Source of the DNA: a virus
Lineage: Duplodnaviria; Caudoviricetes
Length of the DNA: 52,666 nucleotides
Direction: 5' to 3' (one strand)
Virus record (IMG/VR): IMGVR_UViG_3300036781_000342
Location: 1 to 52,666 of that record
The notes beneath the pieces are model-generated. The model saw nothing but the letters and a program-made list of their open reading frames with translations. It made no database searches and was not told the DNA's origin. The position numbers and the translations under genes are program-made. Below are positions 15,357 to 46,452 of this stretch, piece after piece (within the stretch, counting starts at the first letter, position 1; every line of letters begins with the position of its first letter).

Positions 15357-16652
15357 ATGACAAGCCCCAGCCTGCACGCGACTCGCGACCACGCCCTTTG
15401 GTCGGCATCGGCGACCGCAAGAAACTGGCAATGCCCTGGCGCATTGGCCCTCGGTCAAACCGTTCGACATCTGGACGTGGAGTCGGAAGCTGCAGGCTGG
15501 GGCACAGCGTGTCACGACCTTTCTGAGAAGTGCCTGCGCACCGGCCTCGACGCAGCCGATAGGATCGGGGAAACCATCAAGACGAAGAGCCACAGCTTCG
15601 ACGTCGACGAAGAGATGGCCGAGTGTGCGCAGGTCTACATCGACTATGTGCGCGATCAGTCTGGCAAGGCCGCGATCGCCTCCATGCTGGATCGCTACGG
15701 CGACCTCTTGTTCCTTGAGACTCGTTTCTCTCTCGAAAAGCTCAACCCGCCCTTCGACGCGGGCGGCACCTGCGACGCCATCGTTTACAGCCCGGCCGAG
15801 AAGCTGCTCGAGGTCATCGACCTAAAGGGCGGCCGCGGCGTTCGCGTGGAGGTCACAGAGAACAAGCAGCTCCGCACCTACGCCCTCGGCGCCATGCTCG
15901 CCCACCCCGAACTGAAGGTCGATCGCGTCAAGTCGACCATCGTCCAGCCGCGCATGGAGCACAAGGACGGCCGCATCCGCTCGGAGACACTGCACGTCAC
16001 AGAGTTGATGGAGTGGACGGCCGAACTGTGCGCCGCGATGGAGCGGTCGGCCGCCGCGATAGCGAAGCACACCGACATCAAGGGCGACTTGATGCGGGAC
16101 GCTTGGGCCGAACGCTGGCTGGAGCAGGGCGCCCACTGCACCTTCTGCCCCGCGGCCGGCATCTGCCCGGCGCTGCAAGCCAAGGCGATGGCCACCGCTA
16201 ACGCCTTCTTCAACGACAGCGGCGCAACCGTCATCCGAAACCAGCCCGAAGATCTCGACCCGGCCCGCATCGGGCAGGTGCTCGACGGCGCCGACGACCT
16301 GCAGAACTGGCTCAACGCCGTCCGCGCGCTCGGAACACGCCTGGCTCAGACAGGCACCGATATCCCCGGCCACTACCTCGCCGAGAAGCACGGCCACCGG
16401 AAATTCCGAGATCCCGACACAGCACCCGCCGCGCTCGAGCTGCTGGGCCTGTCGCACGCCGACATCTACGCCGCGCCGAAGCCCAAGACGCCCGCCCAGG
16501 TCGAGAAGGCGCTGGGTGCCAAGCGCCTGAAGAGCATCAAGGAGCATTTGGACGCCCTCGTCCACAAGCCCGTCACCGGAGTCACCCTCGTATCGTCAGC
16601 CAAGAGCAGCAAGCCGCCGGTGAAGGCTGCTGCCGAGAGGTTCTTCACATGA
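15357..16652 (+). CDS. DUF2800 Cas4-like PD-(D/E)XK exonuclease
   Basis: SASAT..CPG, GTACH, GGTCD, VIDLKGG, QLRTYALG, HCTFC..ICP. Confidence 0.9.
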   Translation: MTSPSLHATRDHALWSASATARNWQCPGALALGQTVRHLDVESEAAGWGTACHDLSEKCLRTGLDAADRIGETIKTKSHSFDVDEEMAECAQVYIDYVRDQSGKAAIASMLDRYGDLLFLETRFSLEKLNPPFDAGGTCDAIVYSPAEKLLEVIDLKGGRGVRVEVTENKQLRTYALGAMLAHPELKVDRVKSTIVQPRMEHKDGRIRSETLHVTELMEWTAELCAAMERSAAAIAKHTDIKGDLMRDAWAERWLEQGAHCTFCPAAGICPALQAKAMATANAFFNDSGATVIRNQPEDLDPARIGQVLDGADDLQNWLNAVRALGTRLAQTGTDIPGHYLAEKHGHRKFRDPDTAPAALELLGLSHADIYAAPKPKTPAQVEKALGAKRLKSIKEHLDALVHKPVTGVTLVSSAKSSKPPVKAAAERFFT

Positions 16653-16890: not shown

Positions 16891-17568
16891 ATGTCAAACG
16901 CACGGTCACAGGACTTCCGCATCATGGGTATGCGGGCCGCCTTCCTCAACGTCTTCAAGCCACAGAAGATCGAGGACAACGGCGTCATCAAGCTGAAGTA
17001 CAACGCCACGCTGCTGTGGCCCAAGGGCAACGACCTGATCGGCTTCATGGTCGACGGCAAGCAGTTCAACGTCATGGAAGAGGCCGCCCGTGTCGCCACC
17101 GAGCAGTGGGGCGACAAGGCCGGCGAGCTGATCAAGAGCGGCGTCATCAAGAGCCCGTTCCTCGACGGCGACGGCCCGCAAGGCGTGTCGAAGAAGACCG
17201 GCGAGCGCCACAAGGGCTTCGCAGGCCACCGCTTCATCCGCGCGTCGGCCAACGAGGACCGCAAGCCCGACCTGACGCTCAACGTGCTCGGCGCCGACAA
17301 CAAGCTGGTGCGTGCGACGGATCCCAACAGCATCTACTCGGGCTGCCTGGTGAACGTCGTCGTCAACCTCTACGGCTGGGAGCACGCCAAGAACGGCAAG
17401 GGCCTGTCGTTCGGCCTGTCGGCTGTCCAGTTTGCCGGCGACGGTGAGCGTCTGGGCGGTAGTGGCGGCGCCAATGCCGACAGCTTCTTCGAGGGCGTGA
17501 AGGCCCCCGATGCGGCCGCGGCCAAGGCTGTCGCCGAGGGCGCCGGGGCGGGCGGTCTTTTCGCCTAG
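16891..17568 (+). CDS. DUF2815 / Enc34-like single-stranded DNA-binding protein
   Basis: PFLDGD, IYSGCLVN, NGKGLSFGLSAVQFAGDGERLGG. Confidence 0.9.
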   Translation: MSNARSQDFRIMGMRAAFLNVFKPQKIEDNGVIKLKYNATLLWPKGNDLIGFMVDGKQFNVMEEAARVATEQWGDKAGELIKSGVIKSPFLDGDGPQGVSKKTGERHKGFAGHRFIRASANEDRKPDLTLNVLGADNKLVRATDPNSIYSGCLVNVVVNLYGWEHAKNGKGLSFGLSAVQFAGDGERLGGSGGANADSFFEGVKAPDAAAAKAVAEGAGAGGLFA

Positions 17569-20223: not shown

Positions 20224-20450
20224 CCGTCCTCCACAGCCAATCCGACACCCGCGACGACCGCACCAAGTGCGGCGTCGAAGGCATCCAGATCGCACTCGGC
20301 GGGCGGCTTGCGCTGCTGTCGCCAGGCCGATGCGCCTTCAAGCTGGCGTTCGAAGGCGAGCAGGTGACGTGCGCGACGTGCGTCGCAGGCGTCCGCACGC
20401 TGCGCGGGGTGCGGACGATGGGCTGGAAGCGGTTGTTGGGGGACGTATGA
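20220..20450 (+). CDS. Small Cys-containing hypothetical protein
   Basis: Coupled at both ends; TKCG..VTCATC. Confidence 0.55.
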   Translation: MTVLHSQSDTRDDRTKCGVEGIQIALGGRLALLSPGRCAFKLAFEGEQVTCATCVAGVRTLRGVRTMGWKRLLGDV

Positions 20451-22687
20451 GCGAGTCCGCTCGCGTGGATTTTGAGTCCAGATGTGATCTACGCCTCGGC
20501 CTGAAGCATCGCGACAACAAGGGCCTCGGCCGTTACTTCGAAAGCCCGCACTGGAAGGCACTCATCATGTGCCACCAGATGCCGGGCGCCGAGACCATCA
20601 GCGACTGGACCTACCGCGACGTCGATTGCCCGGCCGACCTCGCCCACCACATCCGCACCGGCGGGATGATACGTGCGCATAACGCGCAGTTCGAACGCAA
20701 CTGCTTCGACAACCAGCACTCCCGCTTCGGCTGGCCGCGGCCGCGCGTCGACCAATACGTCTGTACGGCGGTTGAGGCCGCTGCCATGTCGCTCCCGCGC
20801 TCGCTCGACGACGTCGGCACGGTGCTCAACCTGGCTGTCCAGAAGGACAAGCGCGGCAAGGAACTGATCGACTTCTTCAGCGTCCCCATCCGGCGTCTCA
20901 AGCGCCACGCGCACCTGCCGCCCGGCCCGATCTTCAACGAGCCCGAAGACCATCCAGAGCAGTTCGACGCTTTCCGCACGTACTGCCGGCGCGACGTAGA
21001 GACCGAGGCTGCCGTCGCCGCGCGCCTGTTTCCCCTCATGGCCGCCGATCAGGAGATGTACACCCTCGACCAGGTCATCAACTCGCGCGGCCTGCAGATC
21101 GACCTGGAGAGCGTTCACGCCGCGCTGCGCCTGGCCGCCAAGGCACGCGAACGGCTCGAGGCCGAATTGCTCGACCTAACCCTCGGTCAGGTCACAGGCA
21201 TCAACAAGTCGGCCGAGATTTGCGCGTACCTGAAGAAGCGCGGCGTCGAGACCGACTCTGTGGCCAAGGACGTCGTTGCCGACCTGTTGGAGCTCGAGGA
21301 CATCCCCGACGATGCGCGCCGCGTGTTGGAGATCCGGCAGCAGGGCGCGAAGTCCTCGACGGCCAAGCTCGAGGCCCTGGTCGAGAGAGCCTCTGCCGAT
21401 GGCAGAGTTCGCAACGCCTTCATGATGAACGCCGCCGGCCCTGGGCGCTGGACGTCGACCGGCGCCCAGCTTCACAACCTGCCGCGGCCGCGCAAGGTAT
21501 TCGCCGACGCGCATCTCGACCTCGACGTCCTGTTCGGCGCCATCCGCCACGGCGACCCGGCTTACGTCGAGTTCCTGTACGGCCCGCAGCTCGGCCAGCC
21601 CCTGCCGCTGCTCGCCGACAGTCTCAAGAGCTTCATCTGCGCCGCGCCTGGCCACGACCTGATGGAGGTCGATTACAGCGGCATCCAGAACGCCAACGGC
21701 GCCTGGCTGGCCGACGAGACGTGGAAGCTAGAGGCGATGAAGGAAATCATCGCCAACCCCAAGCTGCCCGATATGTACTGCCGCGTCGCCGAGGGCATCT
21801 ACGGCGAGCCGATCGCCAAGGGCGACGGCCGGCGCCAGGTCGGCAAGGTCTCGGATCTGTCGATGCAGTTCGAAGGCGGCGTGTCGGCGCTGTATATGAT
21901 GGCCCGCGTCTACGGCCTGAAGCTGCATCCCGTCTTCCCGCCAGTCTGGGCCGCCGCCAGTGAAGAACGCCGCGAGAAGGCGTGCAAACGCTACGAGCGG
22001 TGTCTGAAGCGGCGCGAGGCCAAGGCCGACGTGCTGACGCGCGAGGGCTGGATCGCCGGCGAGCTCATCAAGATCGGCTTTCGCGCCGGCCATCCCGCCA
22101 TCGCTGGCTCCTGGAAGCTGCTGGCCAACGCCATGCGCGAGGCGGTAGCGAACCCCGGCAAGCAGGTCAGCGTCCTCAAGGTGGCGTATCTCGTCGCCCA
22201 TGACTTCCTGTTCTGTCGGTTGCCATCCGGCCGCGCCATCGCCTACCCGGCGCCACGGCTGCGCCAGATGGTGTGGTTCAAGGATCACCTGACCGGCGAC
22301 AGCGACTGCATCCCGGCCGAGCAGGGCTACGCTCGCGAGAAGGCTGGCGAGGGGAAGGTGACGGATAACGCGCCGGCGTCGGTGACGGCGCTTGGCGTCG
22401 ACAACAACACGCGGGAGTTCCTGCGCTACGGCCTGTATGGCGGCCTTGCCTTCCAGAACGTCGTCATGGGCATCGAGGTCGACATCCTGCGCCACGGACT
22501 CAAGGCGGCCGAGCGCGAGGGCTATCCGGCCGTCGGGCACATTCACGACGCGGGGCTCTTTGAACCCCCAGAGGGGTTCGGAAGCGTCGACGAGCTGCGC
22601 GAGACCATGTGCCGGCTGCCTGGGTGGGCTGCGGGCCTGCCGCTGACTGGCGCGGGTTATCGCTCAAAACGTCTGAAAAAGGATTGA
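20447..22687 (+). CDS. Family A DNA polymerase with 3'-5' exonuclease domain
   Basis: DFES, AHNAQFE, YCRRDV; GRW..QLHNLPR; DYSGIQ; RQVGK; HIHD. Confidence 0.93.
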   Translation: MSESARVDFESRCDLRLGLKHRDNKGLGRYFESPHWKALIMCHQMPGAETISDWTYRDVDCPADLAHHIRTGGMIRAHNAQFERNCFDNQHSRFGWPRPRVDQYVCTAVEAAAMSLPRSLDDVGTVLNLAVQKDKRGKELIDFFSVPIRRLKRHAHLPPGPIFNEPEDHPEQFDAFRTYCRRDVETEAAVAARLFPLMAADQEMYTLDQVINSRGLQIDLESVHAALRLAAKARERLEAELLDLTLGQVTGINKSAEICAYLKKRGVETDSVAKDVVADLLELEDIPDDARRVLEIRQQGAKSSTAKLEALVERASADGRVRNAFMMNAAGPGRWTSTGAQLHNLPRPRKVFADAHLDLDVLFGAIRHGDPAYVEFLYGPQLGQPLPLLADSLKSFICAAPGHDLMEVDYSGIQNANGAWLADETWKLEAMKEIIANPKLPDMYCRVAEGIYGEPIAKGDGRRQVGKVSDLSMQFEGGVSALYMMARVYGLKLHPVFPPVWAAASEERREKACKRYERCLKRREAKADVLTREGWIAGELIKIGFRAGHPAIAGSWKLLANAMREAVANPGKQVSVLKVAYLVAHDFLFCRLPSGRAIAYPAPRLRQMVWFKDHLTGDSDCIPAEQGYAREKAGEGKVTDNAPASVTALGVDNNTREFLRYGLYGGLAFQNVVMGIEVDILRHGLKAAEREGYPAVGHIHDAGLFEPPEGFGSVDELRETMCRLPGWAAGLPLTGAGYRSKRLKKD

Positions 22688-23632: not shown

Positions 23633-23847
23633 GCACGCCACACCTGCACGCCTTCACGGCCACCGTCACCTTCAATGACGGCGGCGAACCGCGCGAAATC
23701 CCGTACGACGCCCTGTGCGGGCTCAACGGCGGATTCTATTTCCAGGCTCTGGGCTCGCCATCGACGTGGCTGCCGGCCGACCGCATCGCCGAGATCGAGA
23801 TGACGGACAATCCGCACTATGTGGCGGGTGGTATGGTGGCGCAATGA
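23629..23847 (+). CDS. Hypothetical protein
   Basis: GAGGTG RBS; ATGA overlap. Confidence 0.6.
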   Translation: MSTPHLHAFTATVTFNDGGEPREIPYDALCGLNGGFYFQALGSPSTWLPADRIAEIEMTDNPHYVAGGMVAQ

Positions 23848-24050
23848 ATCCCTTCGCTTGGTTCGCCATAGCCCTCTTAGCTGGCGGTTTCACTTGGTTT
23901 TGCGCTTCAGAGGACACCCGCACCCGTCAGTACGTCGCCGACTGCGACCAGCAGGGTGGCCGCGTGGTCCGTATGTACCTGCAGCAACACATGCGCTGGA
24001 TGCAGTGCGTTCACGGCCTCGAAGTCGTGACACTGCCGCAAGACCGATGA
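23844..24050 (+). CDS. Small membrane-anchored protein
   Basis: N-terminal TM, C..GG..C; ATGA overlaps. Confidence 0.6.
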   Translation: MNPFAWFAIALLAGGFTWFCASEDTRTRQYVADCDQQGGRVVRMYLQQHMRWMQCVHGLEVVTLPQDR

Positions 24051-24337
24051 CCCTCGACGAACTCCGCGCCGACCGGCCCAACCTCGGCTTCGCCGTCTAC
24101 GCCTACGAGCCTGGCAAGCCCGTGACGCTGGAGATCCACGACGCCGACGGCCAGACCTACAGCGTCACGACACCGACGCTCGAGGCGGCGATCGGCGTTG
24201 CGTTTCCGTCTGTTGTTTCAAGGGTGCCGTCCGGCGACGAGTCGCACTCGTCGTCGCTGCGGCCGCGGCGCTACTCGCCTTCAGTGGCTGAGGAAGCGGA
24301 CGGCCCCGTTGAAACAACAGGCGATGTGTTTTCGTAG
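24047..24337 (+). CDS. Hypothetical protein ending GDVFS
   Basis: ATGA overlap; LGFAVYAYEPGKPVTLE. Confidence 0.65.
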   Translation: MTLDELRADRPNLGFAVYAYEPGKPVTLEIHDADGQTYSVTTPTLEAAIGVAFPSVVSRVPSGDESHSSSLRPRRYSPSVAEEADGPVETTGDVFS

Positions 24338-24566: not shown

Positions 24567-24743
24567 GTGCCTGACCAACAGCCGCCGCCCCACCAATGCC
24601 AATACTGCGGGCGGGACATGGCGCGCGAGAGCCACAAGCTCGACTGCCGGATCGTGCGCGACATCGACGGCATTGAAGGCTACCTAGACATCCCGGCGTT
24701 CCTGGATGTGCGGCGTGGTAAGCAGAGCGACGTGTTTGACTAG
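24567..24743 (+). CDS. Small Zn-binding protein with an FtsZ C-terminal-like YLDIPAFL motif (start 24558 or 24567)
   Basis: CQYC..H..C; YLDIPAFL; ends SDVFD. Confidence 0.6.
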   Translation: MPDQQPPPHQCQYCGRDMARESHKLDCRIVRDIDGIEGYLDIPAFLDVRRGKQSDVFD

Positions 24744-24753
24744 GGAGACGATG

Positions 24754-24873
24754 ATGCCGTTCACCAACGACGAGATCAGAAATATCGCTCGCGTAACGCT
24801 CGACCACTATGAGATGCGCCACTACCGCCGCCCGCCGCTGTGGCGGCGATTCTTGCGTTGGTTCGGTCTCTAG
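24754..24873 (+). CDS. 39-aa protein resembling the major capsid protein N-terminus
   Basis: GGGAG RBS; MPFTNDEIRNIARVTLDHYEMRHYRRPPLWRRFLRWFGL (below the ORF-track cutoff). Confidence 0.6.
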   Translation: MPFTNDEIRNIARVTLDHYEMRHYRRPPLWRRFLRWFGL

Positions 24874-24946
24874 TCACGCCAGCCCTGTCTGACGTCAGAC
24901 AAATCCGTTAAACTAGACGCTCCCGCGCACCCTCGAGGCGAGCCGT

Positions 24947-25660
24947 TTGACCCTTCTGTTAGGTGACTGTCGCGACGTCCTGCCGACGCTGGAACTCGCC
25001 GACGCCGCAATCACAGACCCGCCATACGGCGACACGAGCCTGGAGTGGGATCGCCGTGTAGATGGTTGGGTGGCGGTGTTGGCGCGGGCGCTCAAGCCGG
25101 CGGCCAGTGTGTGGGTGTTCGGCAGCTTGCGCTTCCTCGTGCCGGTCTTTGCCGAGTTGGAAGCGGCCGGCTTTCGCTACAGCCAGGACATCGTTTGGCA
25201 TAAGCAAAACGGCACTGGCTTCCACGCCGACCGCTTCCGGCGTGTCCACGAGCACGCGGCGATGTTCTACCGGGGTGCGTGGTCCGACGTCTACCACGAC
25301 ACGCAGTACACAGCCGACGCGACGGCGCGGACAGTGCGTCGGAAGAAGCGGCCAGCGCATACCGGCCACATCGAAGCGTCGCACTACGTCAGCCACGACG
25401 GCGGCCCGCGCATGATGCGGAGCGTGTTGGACGTCCGTAACGAACACGGCCGAGCGGTTCACCCGACCCAAAAGCCTGTCGAACTGATAGAGCCTCTGGT
25501 GCGCTACAGCGTGCCGCCCGGCGGCTTGGTCGTAGACCCGTTCGCCGGCAGTGCTTCGACCTGCCTCGCAGCGATAAGCGCCGGCCGACGCTACGTCGGC
25601 ATCGAGAAAAACGCCGACTATTTCGCAATGGCGCAACAGCGGATTGGAGTCTTCCTGTGA
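24947..25660 (+). CDS. N6-adenine/N4-cytosine DNA methyltransferase (beta class)
   Basis: GDC, TDPPY, HPTQKP, DPFAGSAST. Confidence 0.93.
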   Translation: MTLLLGDCRDVLPTLELADAAITDPPYGDTSLEWDRRVDGWVAVLARALKPAASVWVFGSLRFLVPVFAELEAAGFRYSQDIVWHKQNGTGFHADRFRRVHEHAAMFYRGAWSDVYHDTQYTADATARTVRRKKRPAHTGHIEASHYVSHDGGPRMMRSVLDVRNEHGRAVHPTQKPVELIEPLVRYSVPPGGLVVDPFAGSASTCLAAISAGRRYVGIEKNADYFAMAQQRIGVFL

Positions 25661-27849
25661 CCGGCAATCCGTTCCGTTCGTTCTTCGATGCGGGCTATCA
25701 GCGCTTGATACCCGTGGTGCCACCCGGTGCGCCGCTGTCGCCAAACTCGTCGCTCGCAAAGCGCATGGAGCGCGACGCCACCAAGGATGCGCGCGGCAAG
25801 GCGCCTGGCGTGCTGGGTGGCGATGGTCTCTGGCGTGGCGTCGACTGGCTAAAGATCGTCGTAAGTGAGCAGCTGCTCGACGAGTGGAACAGCTGGCAAG
25901 CCGGCGTAGGCATCCGCACCGGCGCGGGTTTGGTGGCTGTCGACATCGACACGTTGGACCCACAGCTCGCCAAGATCGCCGACGACGCTGCGAGCGAACT
26001 GCTGGGGCCATCGCCGGCGCGCATCGGCCGCGCCCCGAAGACCCTGCGCGTCTACCGCTGCACCGAAGACCGGCCCTACCAGCGCGCAACCTTCGCCGGC
26101 GGCATCGTCGAGTTGCTGACAGAGGGCAAGCAATTCGTCGCGTCCGGCATCCACCCCAAGACCGGCAAGCCCTACGAGTGGCAGCCTTACGCCATGCCGT
26201 TCACGGCCCTGGTCGAAGTCACTGGCGTCCAGCTCGACGCCTTCTTCGCCCGCCTGACCGAGATCCTGCCCGCAACCGAGATCAGCACCGAAGCCACAGC
26301 AGCGCGCGCCGACGTCGACCAGGCGCAGCTTGCAGGCAATCCAGACACGGTGGACGAAGCCGTGGCCGCGCTCCCAAACAACTTCGAGGACCGCGACAGC
26401 TACATCCGCGTCGGCGCTGCCATCAAGGCCGCCATCCCTGACGACCCGGAACACGGCCTCGAACTCTTCCAGGATTGGGCCAGCAAGTGGCACGACTACG
26501 ACGCCGACAACACAGCATCGGATTGGAAGCGGCTCAAGCCACCTTTCAGCGTCGGTGCGCAGTACCTCTACAGCCTCGCCAGCGAGCACGGCGACTTCAG
26601 CACCGCAGATGCATGGTTCACCGGCTCTAGCGCACCAGCGGGCTCCGCAGGTGTAGCAAAGACGATTTGGGATGAGGCACCGGCCGAGGCAGAGCCTGAG
26701 TTGCCGCCGCTCCAGTGGGCAAACACGCGCACCTGGCGCCAGACCGAAGCGCCCAAGCGGGAGTGGGAGGTAGACGGCTTCATCCCGCGCGGCGTCGTCA
26801 CGCTGGTCTATGGTGAGGGTGGCGTCGGCAAGACGCTCGTGATGCACCAGTACGCCGCGTGCGCCGCCGCAGGCGTCAAATGGCTGGGCCAACCGACCCG
26901 GCCGGCGCGCGTCATGTGCGTGTTCTGCGAGGACGACGAAGACGAGCTCCACCGGCGCCATCAGGCGATCATCAAGGCGTGCGGCATCGAGGGCGATTCC
27001 GTCGACGACAACCTGCGCATCATCTCACGCGCCGGCGAAGACAACCTGATCGTTGGCTTCAGCCGCTCGGGCGCTGCGATGCAGAAGACCGCTTTTTGGC
27101 ATCAGCTCAACCGCGAAGCCGATGCGTGGCAGCCCGACGTGCTGATCCTCGACACGATCGCCGACATCTATGGCGGGTCGGAGATAGACCGTATGCAGGT
27201 CAACCAGTTCGTGAAGGTCGGGCTTGGCGGCCTGGCGCCCAAGAACAGCAAGCGGTCGGTGATAGCCCTGGGCCATCCATCGGTGGCCGGTAGGTCTGAG
27301 GGGCGCAGCGGATCCACAGCCTGGTCCAACGCCTCGCGCCATAGAAACTACATGCGCCGGCCCAAGGGCAAGGAAAAGGGCAACGAGCGCGAGATAGAGG
27401 GGATGAAGACCAACCGCGGCGCGGTCGGCAACCTGTTGCAGGTCGAGTGGAAGGCCGGCGCGTTCTCGATCGTCGCCTCGTCTACCCAGATAGACCTAAA
27501 CGCTTTTAAAGAGGCTGCGGTGGCCAGTGTGGCGCGGGAGCAGACGACAGAGGGTCGCGAGGAAGCCGCTGTGCTGGCGGCTGTGGCGGCCGCGCGCACG
27601 GCGTGCCTGCCGCTGGGCATGTCGGCCCGGTCGTACAACACGTATGCCCCGCGCGCCCTGCGCGTCGCGTTCCCTGAGATCATGCGCCTAGTGCGCGGCG
27701 ATGACGCCATCGTTGAAGACGTGATGCGCCGACTACTGAGCAGCGGTCGTGTCAGGGCGGCAACCTGGCGGAACCCCGCGCGCAGGCACGACGTGTCGGG
27801 CTATGAGGTCGTTACGGCCGCATCGGCAGGGACCGACATATTCAATTGA
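25657..27849 (+). CDS. Primase-polymerase / PriCT-2 / AAA_25 (RepA-like) helicase fusion
   Basis: VAVDID, SGIHPKTGKPYEW; GEGGVGKT; CEDD; LILDT; GSTAW. Confidence 0.92.
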   Translation: MTGNPFRSFFDAGYQRLIPVVPPGAPLSPNSSLAKRMERDATKDARGKAPGVLGGDGLWRGVDWLKIVVSEQLLDEWNSWQAGVGIRTGAGLVAVDIDTLDPQLAKIADDAASELLGPSPARIGRAPKTLRVYRCTEDRPYQRATFAGGIVELLTEGKQFVASGIHPKTGKPYEWQPYAMPFTALVEVTGVQLDAFFARLTEILPATEISTEATAARADVDQAQLAGNPDTVDEAVAALPNNFEDRDSYIRVGAAIKAAIPDDPEHGLELFQDWASKWHDYDADNTASDWKRLKPPFSVGAQYLYSLASEHGDFSTADAWFTGSSAPAGSAGVAKTIWDEAPAEAEPELPPLQWANTRTWRQTEAPKREWEVDGFIPRGVVTLVYGEGGVGKTLVMHQYAACAAAGVKWLGQPTRPARVMCVFCEDDEDELHRRHQAIIKACGIEGDSVDDNLRIISRAGEDNLIVGFSRSGAAMQKTAFWHQLNREADAWQPDVLILDTIADIYGGSEIDRMQVNQFVKVGLGGLAPKNSKRSVIALGHPSVAGRSEGRSGSTAWSNASRHRNYMRRPKGKEKGNEREIEGMKTNRGAVGNLLQVEWKAGAFSIVASSTQIDLNAFKEAAVASVAREQTTEGREEAAVLAAVAAARTACLPLGMSARSYNTYAPRALRVAFPEIMRLVRGDDAIVEDVMRRLLSSGRVRAATWRNPARRHDVSGYEVVTAASAGTDIFN

Positions 27850-40175: not shown

Positions 40176-41827
40176 TGCCGCACCCGAACGCCATCAACCC
40201 GGCCACCGGCAAGCGCTACAGCTTCGTTCCGCCCGAAAAGCGTAGCGCAGCAGCCCAGCAGGCAGAGAAAACGAAGCAGAACGACCAGCAAATCCTGTTG
40301 CTCAAACGTCAGCTCGCGGCCGTGGAATCGCGCGAACGGCTGCTGACGTTCACGAAATTCATGATGCCGGACCCCGAGGCGATGGATGACGCCTCACGTA
40401 GCAAGTACGAAGCGGCACGGTTCCACGAGGAAATCGCCAAAGTCCTCGAGCAGGTTGAAGACGGCCGCATACCGTTGCTGATTTTCTGTATGCCGCCGCG
40501 GCACGGCAAGACGCAGCTCGCCACCAAGAGCTTCGCCGCCTGGTACAGCGGTCGACACCCCGATCACGACGTCATCGTGGCGGCCGCTGGCGACGATCTG
40601 GCCGCCGACATGGGAGCCGACACCCGCGCCATCATGACGTCGCCGCAGTACAAACTGGTCTTCCCTCGCCATAAACTACGACGCGGCGGTACGGCGAAAG
40701 ACAACATCCAAACCGACAAAGGCGGCCGGCTGATCTTCGCGGGGCGCGGCGGCCAGATTAACGGCCGCGGCGCTCATTTGCTGCTGATCGACGATCTCTA
40801 CAAGGACGACAAAGAGGCGCGCTCGCAAACCATCCGCGACGACGCCTGGAATTGGTTCACCCGCGTCGCCCTGAAGCGTCGCATGGGTAAGAAGCTCGTC
40901 GTGGTCACGATGACGCGCTGGCATAGTGACGACCTAATCGGCCGCCTAACGGACCCGGAAAACCCGCACTACAACGAGGACGAGGCCAAAACCTGGAAGA
41001 TTATCCGGCTTCCGGGCCTGGCTGAAGACGACGACCCCCTTGGCCGCAAGCCCGGCCAGGCGCTGTGGCCCGAGCGGTACGACGAAGAGTACCACGCCGC
41101 CGATCGCCGGCGCGATCCGCTCGGCTTCGAGGCGCTGGTGCAGCAACGGCCGACGGTGGCCGACGGTGTGCTCTTCCGGCGCGAGAACATTCGCTACTAC
41201 GACACGAAAGATTTGCCGGAAGAACTGCGGGTCTACTGCGCTTCCGACCACGCCGTTGGCACCAAACAGCGCAACGACCCGTCGTGCTTCGTCAAGATCG
41301 GTGTCGACCGGGAAGATAACATTTACATTCTCGATTGCTGGTGGAAGCGGGCGCGCACCGACGAAGCTGTCGAGGCAATGCTGACAATGGGTGCCACGGG
41401 CAACCGGCGACCGCTCATATGGTGGGCCGAGCGCGGTCAGATAACGGGGTCGATAGGGCCGTTCTTGCGCAAACGGATGCAGGAGACCGGACAGTACATC
41501 AACGTCATCGAAGTGACGCCAAAGGCCGACAAGGAGCAACGGGCGCAGTCAATCGCCGCTCGCGTCGCTATGGGCCGTGTTTTATGGCCGAATGGCCCTG
41601 ACTGGACCGAAAGGTCGATCAACGAGCTGATGGCCTTCCCGAACGGCACGCACGATGACTTTGTCGACGCGCTCGCGTATATTGGTCTCGGGCTCCCCCG
41701 CCAGGTGCGGGCCAGTGCGCCGCCCAGGAAGCAGGATGTGCCGAAGTTCGGCACCCTAGCCTGGGTGAAGTACACAGCCAAATGGCACGATGACGAGGCC
41801 AAGCGCAAAGCGATGGGCGGTTTTTGA
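40175..41827 (+). CDS. terL: Terminase large subunit
   Basis: MPPRHGKT, LLIDD, TRWH.DD, FPNGTHDDFVDA. Confidence 0.95.
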   Translation: MPHPNAINPATGKRYSFVPPEKRSAAAQQAEKTKQNDQQILLLKRQLAAVESRERLLTFTKFMMPDPEAMDDASRSKYEAARFHEEIAKVLEQVEDGRIPLLIFCMPPRHGKTQLATKSFAAWYSGRHPDHDVIVAAAGDDLAADMGADTRAIMTSPQYKLVFPRHKLRRGGTAKDNIQTDKGGRLIFAGRGGQINGRGAHLLLIDDLYKDDKEARSQTIRDDAWNWFTRVALKRRMGKKLVVVTMTRWHSDDLIGRLTDPENPHYNEDEAKTWKIIRLPGLAEDDDPLGRKPGQALWPERYDEEYHAADRRRDPLGFEALVQQRPTVADGVLFRRENIRYYDTKDLPEELRVYCASDHAVGTKQRNDPSCFVKIGVDREDNIYILDCWWKRARTDEAVEAMLTMGATGNRRPLIWWAERGQITGSIGPFLRKRMQETGQYINVIEVTPKADKEQRAQSIAARVAMGRVLWPNGPDWTERSINELMAFPNGTHDDFVDALAYIGLGLPRQVRASAPPRKQDVPKFGTLAWVKYTAKWHDDEAKRKAMGGF

Positions 41828-44211
41828 TGTCCGGCATGTCTGATCCGTCTGATTCCTACGACGACGTCCAGCCGATCAGCGACGGCGGGTCGGACGACGG
41901 CTCGCGGGACACCCAGACGGTCGACACGACTGCTGACGGAAGCAGCGGGAACACGCCCGAGCAGGACCGCAAGCTCGTCCAGAAGCGCCTCGAGATGATC
42001 CGGCGCGACAAGAAGCACTTCGAGAAGGTCTTCAAGCAGATGGACCGCGACATGTTTGTCGCGCTCCATGGTCGCGACCCCGACTGGAGCGACAAGAGCT
42101 ACGAGGCCAACATCACCGGCCAGCACATCAAGACGAAAACGGCCGCCCTCTACGCCAAGAACCCGAAGATCGTCTCGACCCGCAAGGAGAAGATGGACTT
42201 CCTGATCTGGGACGAGACGCAGGAGTCGCTGGCGGCGGCGATGCAGACTGTCCAGGTGGGCCAGCAGATCATCGCGACACAGATGGCGGCGCAAATGCTC
42301 GCTCAGAAGGGCGCCGGGCAGACGGTTGTGGACGGCCCCGCGGGACCGATGCCGGCAGCCTTCGGCCACAACGGCGGCCCGCCGATGGAGCAGCCGCAGA
42401 TTCCGCCCCAGATGCCCCCGGCATCGACGCCAAGCGCGCCGTCACCGGCCGTTGCCGCCATGATGCCGCCGCCCGAGCCGATTCCGGGCTTCAACGACGC
42501 CCAGGCACTGCTGCAGGACGTGCAGCAGGGCATCGCGCGGCGCCGGATGCTGAAAAAGTTCGGCAAAACCCTCGAAATTCTCTTCGCCGACGCGATGGCC
42601 GAGCAGACGCCGCTCGATTTCAAGGCGGCGATGAAGCGAGTGGTGCGGCGAAGCCTCACCACAGGCGTCGGCTACGTCGAAATGGGCTTTCAACGCGAGT
42701 ATGGCGTCCCGCCGGGCGTCACCGATCAGCTCGCCGACTACCGCCAGCGCATCAACCACCTGCAGCGCCTGATGGAAGAGGCCGCAGAGGGCGAAATCGA
42801 CGAATTGGACGCCGAAATGGCCGAGTTGCAGAAGATGCTGGCCGCGCTGAACGATCAGCCGCAGGCAATCCTGCGTTCCGGCCTCACTTTCGACTTCCTG
42901 CAGTCGACCAAGGTAATCCCCGACCGATTCTGCACGTCACTCGTCGGTTTCATCGGTTGCCGGCACGTCACCATCGAATATCTACGCACCAAGGCGTATG
43001 TCGAAGAGACTTTCGGCGTCGAACTGAAGGAGCGCTACACACCGTACACCGTCGACGGCCAGCGGACCTACGGCGACCGCGGCGTCGACTACGGCGAGGA
43101 CGCCACCGCGGGTATTTTCGGCGGATCCGGTCACGACGACGACCTCGTCATGCTGTTCAAGCAGTACGACAAGGTTTCCGGCCTCGTTTACTGGATGGTC
43201 GACGGCCACCCGAACTTCATCAAGGAGCCGGCAGCCCCGGACGTGGTCGTGCCACGATTCTGGCCGGTCTACGCCATCTGCTTCAACGAAACCGAGAACG
43301 AGAAGAGCCCGTTTCCGCGATCCGACGTCGAATTGCTCAAGCATGTGCAGCGGGAGATCAACCGCAGCCGCCAGGGCAAGCGCGAGCACCGCGAGGCGGC
43401 GCGGCCGCGCTTCATCTACGCCAATGGCGCGCTCGACGAGGAAGAGGACATTCCCGCGCTCGAGAACGCCAAGGCGTTCGACGCCATCGGCCTCAAGGGA
43501 CTCGGCACCGACCAGGACGTCAACAAGGCGCTCCAGGTTCTGAAGATGCCGGGCGTCGACCCGAACCTCTACGACACCAACGAAGTGCTCATGGACGCCT
43601 CGCTGACGGTCGGCGCGACGGCCGGACAGCTCGGCGGCACCGCGAAGAACACGGCCACCGGCGAGGCCATCGCCAGCGGCACCGTGTCGGCGACGGACAG
43701 TTCTTCGATCGACGAGCTCGACGGCTTCCTCACCATGATCGCCCGCGACGGCAGTCAGGTGCTGATGACGAACATGAGCAAGGACGAGGTCATCCCGATC
43801 GCCGGGCCGGGGGCCGTGTGGGTCGAGGACATCGGCGCCGACCCCGAGCAGATATACAACGAGGTCTTCCTGCGCGTCGAAGCGGGCTCGACGGGCAAGC
43901 CCAACCAGGCCGACGAGATTCGCAACTTCAAGGATCTTGCCCCGCTGCTATTGCAGACGGGCGCCATCCCGCCGCAGTTCCTCGCGCGCGAAGGCGTCCG
44001 TCGCCTCGACGACCGCATCGACCTGACGGAGGCCATCGTCGAAGGCGTCCCGGCGATCGTCGCCATGAATCGCAATTCGCAGATGGCGCAGGGCGACCCG
44101 CAGAAGGATCCGAACCAGCAGGGCGGCGAAGGCGGCGACAAGAACGCGACGCCGAGCGGCCCGGCCGGCAGCACCGCCCCGATGGGCAACAACCAGCATC
44201 CGCAGGTTTGA
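41827..44211 (+). CDS. Portal protein (podovirus type)
   Basis: Follows TerL; ~795 aa; TATGEAI; RVEAGSTGKPN. Confidence 0.85.
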   Translation: MSGMSDPSDSYDDVQPISDGGSDDGSRDTQTVDTTADGSSGNTPEQDRKLVQKRLEMIRRDKKHFEKVFKQMDRDMFVALHGRDPDWSDKSYEANITGQHIKTKTAALYAKNPKIVSTRKEKMDFLIWDETQESLAAAMQTVQVGQQIIATQMAAQMLAQKGAGQTVVDGPAGPMPAAFGHNGGPPMEQPQIPPQMPPASTPSAPSPAVAAMMPPPEPIPGFNDAQALLQDVQQGIARRRMLKKFGKTLEILFADAMAEQTPLDFKAAMKRVVRRSLTTGVGYVEMGFQREYGVPPGVTDQLADYRQRINHLQRLMEEAAEGEIDELDAEMAELQKMLAALNDQPQAILRSGLTFDFLQSTKVIPDRFCTSLVGFIGCRHVTIEYLRTKAYVEETFGVELKERYTPYTVDGQRTYGDRGVDYGEDATAGIFGGSGHDDDLVMLFKQYDKVSGLVYWMVDGHPNFIKEPAAPDVVVPRFWPVYAICFNETENEKSPFPRSDVELLKHVQREINRSRQGKREHREAARPRFIYANGALDEEEDIPALENAKAFDAIGLKGLGTDQDVNKALQVLKMPGVDPNLYDTNEVLMDASLTVGATAGQLGGTAKNTATGEAIASGTVSATDSSSIDELDGFLTMIARDGSQVLMTNMSKDEVIPIAGPGAVWVEDIGADPEQIYNEVFLRVEAGSTGKPNQADEIRNFKDLAPLLLQTGAIPPQFLAREGVRRLDDRIDLTEAIVEGVPAIVAMNRNSQMAQGDPQKDPNQQGGEGGDKNATPSGPAGSTAPMGNNQHPQV

Positions 44212-44282: not shown

Positions 44283-45365
44283 ATGCCCTTGCCTCTGGAC
44301 GATAATTCGGTGTCGGACTCGTCCGACGACACCACCCTGGACGTAGCGACCAACGATCAGCAGCTCGGCAACGAGCAGCAGGTCGACACTGGCGCTGATG
44401 GCGCGGATTCGTCCGACGCGCACGGCGATAACGCCGCTCAAGACACTGCCGGCCTCGTTCGCGATGTCGTCAAGCAGGGTCGCGAGCAGGCGACGGCCTC
44501 GCCAGCCGAAGGTGTGGAACAGCAGACCCAGGAAGCTGCAGACCAGGAAGACAAGGGCGAAAGCGACGATTACGCCGACGCCCCCTTCAACAAGCACCCC
44601 CGCTTCCGTCATCTGATCAAGGTGCGCGACGGCCTGAAGGCCGAACGCGACTCCTTTAAGGAAGACGCGGGCCGCTATCACAATGTCCAGACGTTCATGG
44701 ACGACCACGGCATCTCTTCGCAGGAGACCGCGGACGCCTTCATGTTCATGGCCGATGTGAAAGCGGGCCGGTTCGCCGAAGCGTGGGACAAGATCAAGCC
44801 GACCGTCCAGGAACTTTTGGTGCGGGCTGGCGAAGTTCTCCCTGACGACCTCAAGCAGGACGTCGATGCAGGCGCAATCTCGCAGGAACGGGCAGTCGAA
44901 CTGTCCCGTCAGCGCGCGAAAGCGGCCTCGCTCGAACAGGGGCGCAGCTTCGACCAGCAGCGACAGCAGCGCAGCAGCCAGCAGGCGGCGGCGCAGCAGT
45001 TGCACAGTACGGCGATCGACTGGTCACGCGATCGCGGCCGCAAGGATCCGCAGTTCCAAGCCAAAATGCCGCTTCTGATGAAGGAAGTGAGCTGGTTGCA
45101 GTCGCAGCGTCGGGGCACTGAAGGCCACGACCACGACGGGCGGCCCCTGACGTCGGAAGGCGTCAAGGCGCAGCTCGAGGAAGCCTACAAGAACGTTGTT
45201 CCCCCGGCGGCGCGTGGCGCCAACGGGAAGTTCGTTCCCAAGGTTGGCGACGGTACGGCCAAGCCACGACCGACAGCAGCGGGCGGCGCGTCAGGAACCG
45301 CTCGGCCGCAGCCGAAGACGACGCTCGACATCATTCGGGCCGTCCGGGAGCAGCGCGCCGGCTAA
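44283..45365 (+). CDS. Scaffolding protein
   Basis: Acidic N-terminus, PFNKHPRF, coiled coil; between portal and capsid. Confidence 0.75.
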   Translation: MPLPLDDNSVSDSSDDTTLDVATNDQQLGNEQQVDTGADGADSSDAHGDNAAQDTAGLVRDVVKQGREQATASPAEGVEQQTQEAADQEDKGESDDYADAPFNKHPRFRHLIKVRDGLKAERDSFKEDAGRYHNVQTFMDDHGISSQETADAFMFMADVKAGRFAEAWDKIKPTVQELLVRAGEVLPDDLKQDVDAGAISQERAVELSRQRAKAASLEQGRSFDQQRQQRSSQQAAAQQLHSTAIDWSRDRGRKDPQFQAKMPLLMKEVSWLQSQRRGTEGHDHDGRPLTSEGVKAQLEEAYKNVVPPAARGANGKFVPKVGDGTAKPRPTAAGGASGTARPQPKTTLDIIRAVREQRAG

Positions 45366-45381: not shown

Positions 45382-46452
45382 ATGCCTTTTACTGCAGAAG
45401 AGATTGCAAACATCAACGCCGCGTCGCTCGAGGCTTATATCGAGAAGGGCACGGTGTTCAAGCAGAACGTGAGCATGAAGCCCATGCTCAAGGAGTTCGA
45501 TGACGCCCGCGGCCAGTTCGCGGGTGGCAACACGTATGCCTCGGTCGGCGTCAAGTCCGGCCAGGGTGGCGGCTCGCTCGCCGGCTACACGCACGACGAC
45601 CAGGTGTCCTACTACAACTCGGCCACCAACAAGCGCGTGAAGTACGCCTGGAAGGAACACCACATCGGCCAGGTGATCACGCACACCGAGCTCAAGATCG
45701 ACGGCGTCGACGTGTCGGATGAGGGCTCCAAGCAGTCCACCTCCGATATGGACGGCCGCGAGGAGCATGTGCTGGCCAATCTGCTCGACGAGAAGAACGA
45801 CGACCTCGGCGAGGACTACGCCAAGTCACTCGACTCGCTGATCCACGGCGACGGCACCAGCGACACCAAGGCGCTGGCGGGCATCCGCTCGCTAATCGTC
45901 GACGACCCGACCGTCGGTGTCACCGGCGGCCTCGACAAGTCGGTCAACACCGGGTGGCGCAACCGCGCCTTCACCGGCGTCGGCGGCGCGGGCGCGAAGT
46001 TCACGTCCAGCACGTCTGGCGGCGGCGCCCTGCTGCAGGCGCTCCAGAAGGAGTTCCGCACGCTGGGCCGGTACGCGCAGGGCGGCACCCGCTGGCGCTA
46101 CTTCGCCGGCACCGACCTGATCGACGCGATCGAGAAGGAGCTGCGCGCCAACGGCAACTACACGCTCGATGGCTTCACCAACGAGAAGGTCGTCGACGGT
46201 TCGATGGCCGACGTCAAGTGGAAGGGCCAGAAGATCACCTGGGATCCGACCATGGACGACCTCGGCTACGGCAAGCGCCTGTACGTCATCGACATGCGCC
46301 GCATCCGCCTGCTGTACATGAACGGCCAGCGCATGAAGAAGCATCAGCCGGCGCGGCCGTATGACCGCTACGTCATGTACAACGGCCTCACCACGACCGC
46401 AGTCATGGTGGCGCAGCAGCTCAACACGTCCGCCGTTTACGACATCAACTAG
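45382..46452 (+). CDS. Major capsid protein
   Basis: 356 aa, strongest codon bias; LIHGDGT..LAGIRSL..GGLD..WRN. Confidence 0.88.
   Translation: MPFTAEEIANINAASLEAYIEKGTVFKQNVSMKPMLKEFDDARGQFAGGNTYASVGVKSGQGGGSLAGYTHDDQVSYYNSATNKRVKYAWKEHHIGQVITHTELKIDGVDVSDEGSKQSTSDMDGREEHVLANLLDEKNDDLGEDYAKSLDSLIHGDGTSDTKALAGIRSLIVDDPTVGVTGGLDKSVNTGWRNRAFTGVGGAGAKFTSSTSGGGALLQALQKEFRTLGRYAQGGTRWRYFAGTDLIDAIEKELRANGNYTLDGFTNEKVVDGSMADVKWKGQKITWDPTMDDLGYGKRLYVIDMRRIRLLYMNGQRMKKHQPARPYDRYVMYNGLTTTAVMVAQQLNTSAVYDIN

Follow-up and report, generated by a model that had tools for sequence, protein, structure and literature searches.

The window analysed here is the whole of IMG/VR virus record IMGVR_UViG_3300036781_000342 (52,666 bases, 65% G+C, CheckV completeness 90), a Caudoviricetes phage whose genes lie on the plus strand, with the replication module first and the head module after it. 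Its only listed public sequencing run is one soil metagenome, probably the source sample; no RNA run is listed. Inside the replication module, among genes for an exonuclease, a single-stranded DNA-binding protein (SSB), DNA polymerase, a methyltransferase and primase, sits an open reading frame (ORF) of 39 amino acids (aa) whose first 19 residues resemble the N-terminal arm (N-arm) of the phage's major capsid protein (Table 1). A preliminary description had taken it for a copy of that N-terminus with a good ribosome-binding site (RBS), about 20 kb from the capsid gene in the non-structural operon and next to a gene for an FtsZ mimic. The setting is as described: the RBS reads GGGAGA (24743-24748) and places its GGAG core 6 nt upstream of the ATG at 24754, the capsid gene is 20.5 kb away, and the upstream neighbour carries the FtsZ-like motif YLDIPAFL. 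An alternative in-frame ATG at 24751 would give a 40-aa product, and two gene callers each picked a different start.

The resemblance between the ORF and the capsid protein is real. BLASTP aligns the two ungapped from residue 1 to residue 1, as the preliminary description had reported, with 10 of 19 residues identical and 13 of 19 positive (25.4 bits; E = 3e-5 for that single pair). The codons have diverged, as also claimed: 34 of 57 nucleotides (60%) are identical to the phage's own capsid gene, and half of the ten identical residues use a different codon. Since a 25-bit match fails an all-against-all proteome comparison, we tested the match directly as one anchored at the two N-termini. The anchored prefix score is 45; over 2,000,000 shuffled N-terminus pairs a score of at least 45 has P = 2e-6, and the best score among 5,460 real N-terminus pairs in the window genome is 30. 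When the ORF is set against 811 crude ORF N-termini of nine genomes, ranks one to nine all go to the nine capsid genes (scores 39-49) and rank ten drops to 17, so the many equally good unrelated N-termini that the preliminary description had named as a counter-indication did not appear. Six-frame BLAST of the nine genomes likewise matches the N-terminal half to capsid genes only. Among the first 19 positions of 17 aligned capsid members, six are invariant (M1, T4, E7, N10, I11 and L16) and the ORF has all six; matching all five non-Met invariants, given 9 matches in 18 positions, has a hypergeometric p of 0.015.

The same pattern recurs in IMG/VR at large. Every one of the 12 matches to the strict motif MPFTxDEIxNI is the start of a capsid gene (10 complete, 354-361 aa; two cut by a contig end), and of the 94 matches to the loose motif MPFTxxExxNI, 75 fall in complete ORFs (344-368 aa), 14 in ORFs truncated by a contig end and five in short ORFs, where we estimate about three matches by chance. 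Those five (four distinct) lie in unrelated records of 30-49% G+C, in which a capsid profile found nothing, the records being only 8-65% complete. They were considered as second examples of the ORF in other phages and rejected on account of these unrelated low-GC surroundings. That an unrelated small ORF or non-coding spacer should resemble a capsid N-terminus by accident would draw on the modest 25 bits, on an unanchored all-against-all comparison of the 17,000-aa proteome giving E near 0.6, on the match having been picked out of a very large scan and on the five short ORFs in which the loose motif arises alone. Against it, the anchored P translates into about 0.01 expected pairs over the genome's 5,460, every invariant position is matched, all four distinct chance carriers lack both L16 and an aromatic position 19, and the ORF happens to lie in one of the roughly one hundred IMG/VR records, out of 2.9 million, that hold this capsid family. 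Coincidence is therefore extremely improbable and close to refuted already; the similarity is specific to this capsid family.

The similarity stops at residue 19-22. The ORF lacks the later invariants G23, V25 and Q28 and everything that follows them in a capsid protein (the body after the N-arm, comprising E-loop, spine helix, and P and A domains, about 350 aa). A capsid frame continuing past a frameshift was rejected because the other two frames hold no capsid-like sequence. An RNA-level element common to the capsid mRNA was rejected on the 60% nucleotide identity and on differences that fall mostly at third codon positions (6, 6 and 11 at positions 1, 2 and 3). The capsid protein itself matches phrog_9953 ('major head protein') at 2.3e-32, and its structural model, although modest (predicted local distance difference test, pLDDT, 61), has Foldseek matches to many solved HK97-fold capsids (E 1e-8 to 1e-6). 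Its cultured relatives are those of Rhizobium phage RHph_N65 (61% identity) and Microcystis phage Mae-Yong1326-1 (42%); the closest relative, G001, has a capsid protein 85% identical to the window's.

We compared the ORF with the wider family to ask which capsid its head came from. Across 59 distinct capsid N-termini the ORF is identical at 8-12 of 19 positions, with no subclade nearer to it than the others; the phage's own capsid reaches 10, and 23 of the 59 score higher. Capsids only 40-60% identical to the phage's own reach up to 12 of 19, identity to the ORF does not correlate with a capsid's relatedness to the phage's own (r = 0.03), and the best local alignment (14 of 22, one gap) is to a capsid 42% identical to the window's. 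The head is not a recent self-copy; nor, given the outlying residues described below, was it freshly captured from one of the sampled capsids. Thus the part of the preliminary description that saw a capsid N-arm stands, and the part that named the phage's own capsid as its model does not. The similarity is specific to the capsid family and not closest to the phage's own member, and therefore points to a captured fragment of a related capsid gene, the plain alternative in that description and the origin that fits the evidence best.

The ORF has no homologue among everything searched. A word-index search with the 40-aa form, at near and longer lengths, returned only the ORF itself, as did its own cluster and phmmer against 1.84 billion representatives. 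A direct search in relatives matched none of five, six-frame BLAST of eight relatives and tblastn against 50,697 phage records found no counterpart, and a metagenome contig scan for the first 11 residues gave no matches. The best score in the ESM Atlas (0.77) is under the lead level, Pfam gave sub-threshold noise only (Exc 0.051, U3_assoc_6 0.099), and PHROGs and PADLOC gave nothing. The homologues under purifying selection on which the preliminary description would have rested a function are accordingly absent from everything searched. The roles which that description proposed, namely a membrane-associated decoy for capsid-sensing immunity, an assembly modulator and an interference factor, find neither support nor contradiction in the analysis.

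Orphan status notwithstanding, the ORF is probably translated, because the stop-RBS-ATG junction in front of it is inherited, because it fills its site to the base and because its codon usage is coding-like. On log-odds trained on 24 long genes it scores +21.9 bits, which places it at the 15th percentile among true in-frame windows of 39 codons; as high a score is attained in 0.1% of off-frame windows, in 0.07% of random open ones and in 3 of the 106 spurious small ORFs that lie within long genes. Both halves are positive: +15.4 bits for the head and +6.4 for the tail, the latter matched by 0.7% of off-frame windows. A contig from a second assembler spans the whole arrangement with zero differences; it derives from the same sample and hence is not independent.

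Table 1. Features of the window bearing on the 39-aa ORF, with coordinates on the window.
Feature	Position	Strand	Remarks
Exonuclease	15357-16649	+	replication module
Gp2.5-like SSB	16891-17565	+	replication module
DNA polymerase	20450-22684	+	replication module
Small early gene	24047-24337	+	96 aa; C-terminal [VI]F[DSA]
Putative FtsZ-tail mimic gene	24567-24743	+	58 aa; YLDIPAFL; stop TAG 24741-24743 overlaps the ORF's RBS
Left slot junction	24743-24756	+	GGGAGACGATGATG; RBS and two ATGs
39-aa orphan ORF	24754-24873	+	ATG 24754; TAG 24871-24873
ORF codons 1-19	24754-24810	+	diverged copy of the capsid-family N-arm helix; M1, T4, E7, N10, I11, L16 kept
ORF codons 20-39	24811-24870	+	basic tail (net +6); PP break; predicted cationic amphipathic helix 29-38
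Right junction and primase leader	24875-24946; conserved leader to 24952	+	counterpart L015 815-891; more conserved than the flanking genes
N6/N4 DNA methyltransferase	24947-25660	+	PF01555 at 1.7e-36
Primase/helicase	25657-27849	+	replication module
Portal	41824-44211	+	head module
Putative scaffolding protein	44283-45365	+	360 aa; assigned by position between portal and capsid and by analogy with P22 and 80alpha
Major capsid protein	45382-46452	+	HK97 fold; codons 1-19 (45382-45438) are the N-arm segment

Comparison with relatives sets the ORF in a cassette site. Aligned with G001, the window loses homology after the second ATG (24756) and regains it at 24875, 1 nt past the ORF's stop codon; nothing but the ORF occupies the slot (24757-24874). 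G001 holds in the corresponding place two unrelated ORFs of 106 and 57 aa (locus L015, 293-812), followed by the palindrome block and the primase start; the slot of a second relative, G002, holds yet another gene of about 80 aa (about 23815-24030, minus strand). None of these slot ORFs has a Pfam or PADLOC match, and at most there is a marginal hit to phrog_18091 (7e-4). The 16-mer formed by a stop codon running into GGGAGACGATGATG occurs twice in G001, each time before a different gene, and a similar junction is found in G002. In IMG/VR as a whole the 16-mer turns up in ten stretches, namely G001 and nine unrelated genes (including near-identical copy groups of two, three and two), which is about the chance number. 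The G001 slot genes were not found in any other of the genomes, and the window's slot DNA matches nothing. By this comparison the slot is a hypervariable accessory site, at which small whole cassettes are exchanged at conserved junctions. (The relatives' primases were located via genome search; the primase as a lone query gave no loci.)

The ORF thus has what is expected of the ORFans found at mosaic boundaries between phage modules: no homologues, conserved flanking junctions and, in G001 and G002, differing genes at the same place. It departs from them in that its head is recognisably from a structural gene 20 kb away and keeps that family's invariants. We infer that the head arose by recombination. 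In the explanation that we put first, with a confidence that stops a little short of even, the ORF is a chimeric micro-ORF without homologues, probably translated, that took its head from the 5' end of a capsid gene and for which we found no evidence of selection for a function. It would sit in a hot-spot of recombination within the early (replication) operon; its first 19-22 codons would stem from the 5' end of a phrog_9953-family capsid gene, placed in exact register with the start codon after the RBS junction that genes of the slot share, and would lead into an unrelated arginine- and tryptophan-rich tail. The product would form a helix over residues 5-22, an RRPP break and a cationic amphipathic helix over 29-38, and by default it would be a recent by-product of mosaic recombination, neutral or close to it. 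If this is so, the locus is a well-bounded case of mosaic recombination building a micro-ORF from a structural gene, useful for the study of gene birth and unsurprising.

Several observations weigh against so plain a history. Four residues of the head (N5, R9, R13 and V14) are unseen at their positions in 80 distinct capsid N-termini, when real members left out one at a time have 0-2 such residues; its nearest capsid neighbour is identical at 12 of 19 positions, when real members reach 13-18; and it carries two arginines, when 78 of the 80 capsids have neither lysine nor arginine. The family's repertoire has small residues at positions 5, 13 and 14 and as a rule no lysine or arginine along the arm, and the ORF falls outside it. 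These unseen residues, the distant neighbour and the arginines together make the head unlike a fresh capture from a real capsid gene. Its drift is also not what random change would leave: simulated random substitution to the observed nucleotide distance retains a mean of 5.5-7 identical residues, when 10-11 are observed (P = 0.0001-0.007), and keeps all six invariants in at most 0.08% of neutral runs. The pattern fits selection after capture on the invariant face; an unsampled donor capsid would explain it too. The divergence would date either from before the capture, while the segment still belonged to a functional capsid gene outside the sample, or from selection since. In addition, the Met-to-Met register behind an RBS and the end of the ORF at the slot's right edge look like those of a selected module.

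Taken together, the retained invariants, the alignment of start with start, the way the ORF fills its slot to the base and the capsid-atypical residues keep alive the idea that the ORF encodes a co-opted mimic of the N-arm. It would be a membrane-tethered, free copy of the arm that has evolved off the constraints of the capsid and titrates either the C-terminal helix of the scaffold or a host sensor of capsids, an idea we regard as doubtful though far from fanciful. If the peptide is active, its arginines would replace residues that pack on the capsid body, and the invariant, partner-facing residues would be those kept. Single-sequence AlphaFold2 predicts a helix over residues 5-22, a break at HYRRPP and a helix over 29-38 (mean pLDDT 74); the first helix coincides with the predicted helix of the capsid N-arm (residues 5-21, at low pLDDT). 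The peptide has a net charge of +4. It keeps the N-arm's acidic stripe (D6, E7, N10, D17) and hydrophobic stripe (T4, I8, I11, T15, Y19), and the arm's small residues at 5, 9, 13 and 14 become N, R, R and V. Such a pattern would suit a free-standing N-arm released from packing on the capsid body.

Known capsids suggest what such an arm might bind. In P22 (PMC9965877), R293 and K296 in the C-terminal helix-turn-helix of the scaffold hold the N-arm helix of the coat protein at D14, E15 and E18. In 80alpha (PMC5644958), the helix-and-hook at the scaffold C-terminus binds N-arm helix alpha1, and CpmB of SaPI1 competes there. The head module here runs terminase, portal, scaffold-like protein and capsid protein, and the basic C-terminal helix of the putative scaffold (TLDII...R) is conserved in 9 of 10 aligned scaffolds, the exception being the most distant; by analogy, this helix would be the partner of the capsid N-arm in this family. 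What the ORF copies is the helix predicted at the N-terminus of an HK97-fold protein, on which the C-terminal helices of the scaffold dock in P22 (gp5/gp8) and 80alpha (capsid and scaffold proteins), and the acidic residues at 6, 7 and 17 are kept. Unlike those N-arms, the peptide is joined to no capsid body and cannot serve as a subunit of the shell, and it carries arginines that are nearly never found in the family's N-arms. CpmB (PMC5644958) is the nearest precedent for interface mimicry, being a small protein that competes for the N-arm/scaffold interface; but it is the product of a satellite and imitates the scaffold, whereas here the capsid side is copied by a gene of the phage itself.

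On the strength of these parallels the peptide could be an assembly competitor: a free N-arm, held at the membrane by its tail, that binds the scaffold's C-terminal helix or the N-arm site of a neighbouring subunit and so disturbs or times procapsid assembly, its own or that of co-infecting relatives sharing the invariant N-arm core. The coincidence of the two predicted helices, the N-arm contacts and CpmB competition described for P22 and 80alpha (PMC9965877, PMC5644958), the kept stripes beside the changed small positions, the conserved scaffold C-terminus, the invariants held beyond neutral expectation and the place of the ORF in an accessory slot adjoining a host-takeover-like gene all speak for it. 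Yet the ORF is an orphan not found in the closest relative and so offers no selection signal, its place is in the early operon and not among the late genes, and unless dose or timing prevented it, assembly of the phage itself would be poisoned too. We consider this role unlikely. Co-folding of the peptide with scaffold residues 296-360 scored 0.01 (against a mark of 0.32), which is no answer and counts neither way.

The early operon and the accessory hot-spot, together with a head that resembles the family-wide N-arm core and not the details of the phage's own capsid, would also agree with an anti-defence decoy, a peptide that occupies an N-arm-recognising host immune sensor early, at the membrane, and pre-empts the later flood of capsid. 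Capsid proteins do trigger several defence systems, according to a 2026 review (PMC13728456): CapRel, cyclic-oligonucleotide-based anti-phage signalling systems (CBASS) and Thoeris in staphylococci. Several points count against a decoy: the phage is metagenomic, with no known host or defence system, a trigger peptide in free form ought to switch a sensor on and not to blind it, the ORF is an orphan, and the literature searched describes neither a capsid decoy nor a capsid-side mimic of the capsid-scaffold interface. A decoy is accordingly very improbable.

A third use of the arm would be as an address. T4, according to PMC3012670, has a diverse set of internal proteins that share only a conserved N-terminal capsid targeting sequence, which loads them into the scaffolding core; by that precedent the N-arm-like head might bind scaffold, carry the peptide into the procapsid and have it delivered with the DNA. 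The peptide resembles the T4 proteins in being small and basic with a short conserved N-terminal tag. The T4 tag, unlike this head, is common to several packaged proteins: across the nine genomes searched in six frames, no protein but the capsid shares the head. The gene lies, moreover, in the early replication operon, and no prohead protease was noticed between portal and scaffold, in a region where no search was aimed at one. Packaging by such a tag is barely plausible.

The tail may matter in its own right. It may resemble the C-terminal amphipathic membrane-targeting helices of cytoskeletal and division proteins, as a C-terminal predicted helix with a cationic face opposite a Trp/Phe/Leu face. 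The preliminary description had called it amphipathic; its hydrophobic moment is 0.76-0.85 in 11-residue windows starting at 27-29, a value that 9.4% of tail shuffles equal. Its nonapeptide, WRRFLRWFG, had 24 matches in a metagenome scan, none of them a relative; five lie beside hydrophobic, membrane-like stretches and most others are in spurious frames. The same nonapeptide recurs at the same position in a hydrophobic, membrane-like family of about 317-330 aa on three unrelated metagenome contigs (L170, L171 and L173). This recurrence hints at a favoured membrane-interface segment. One may therefore picture a tail-driven membrane peptide in which the Arg/Trp amphipathic helix is functional, in membrane perturbation, superinfection exclusion or host takeover, and the head is vestigial. 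The moment and predicted helix, the five membrane-like matches and the coding-like codon usage of the tail would agree with this picture; the shuffles, the abundance of RRPPLWRR-like strings in spurious frames of these GC-rich genomes and the retained head invariants, which it leaves unexplained, make it improbable.

Were the arm to prove co-opted, phages could deploy a detached capsid N-arm as a tool, with a bearing on the hijacking of capsid-scaffold recognition and on evasion of capsid-triggered immunity. Such a peptide would be without precedent as a mimic of the capsid's side of the interface with the scaffold, and it would open a new class of accessory peptides for competition between phages or immune evasion. 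Since the family has a cultured member in Rhizobium phage RHph_N65, the co-option idea is testable.

Returning to the neighbours, the YLDIPAFL motif of the upstream 58-aa protein is identical over all its eight residues to a continuous stretch of the FtsZ tail of E. coli given in PMC4117426. The protein also carries a CxxC...C segment and GYLDIPAFLDVRRGKQ. Its gene has a homologue of 72% identity in G001 (L015 127-300) and a positional equivalent in G002 (about 24040-24216, minus strand) with ...DLTVPEFLRRQK... in its product. The protein looks like a phage-encoded mimic of the FtsZ tail that could compete for partners of that tail.

On the other side of the slot, the primase leader contains a perfect 16-bp palindrome, TGTCTGACGTCAGACA (24886-24901), and an invariant stretch, CACCCTCGAGGCGAGCCGTTTGACC, that extends into the primase start codon. 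Its RNA fold is not unusual against shuffles (z = -1.0); the leader is likely an operator or other control site acting at the level of DNA. The methyltransferase gene has been inserted right behind the ancestral TTGACC start of the primase and has taken over that start codon together with the leader; the primase ORF begins anew at 25657, its N-terminus complete, and the insertion is not present at this site in G001. We also considered the 39-aa ORF as a leader peptide or upstream ORF for the methyltransferase or primase, and rejected this on the unrelated ORFs that relatives have there and on the same fold statistic.

Finally, several small early proteins share a C-terminal [VI]F[DSA] (…DVFS, …DVFD, …GVFD, …SVFD, …SIFD, …NIFD, …DVFA). 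In the window these are the 96-aa and 58-aa products upstream of the ORF, and equivalents occur in G001, G002, G004, G007 and G008; the 96-aa gene has matches in seven of eight relatives. The recurrence suggests a shared C-terminal docking motif.

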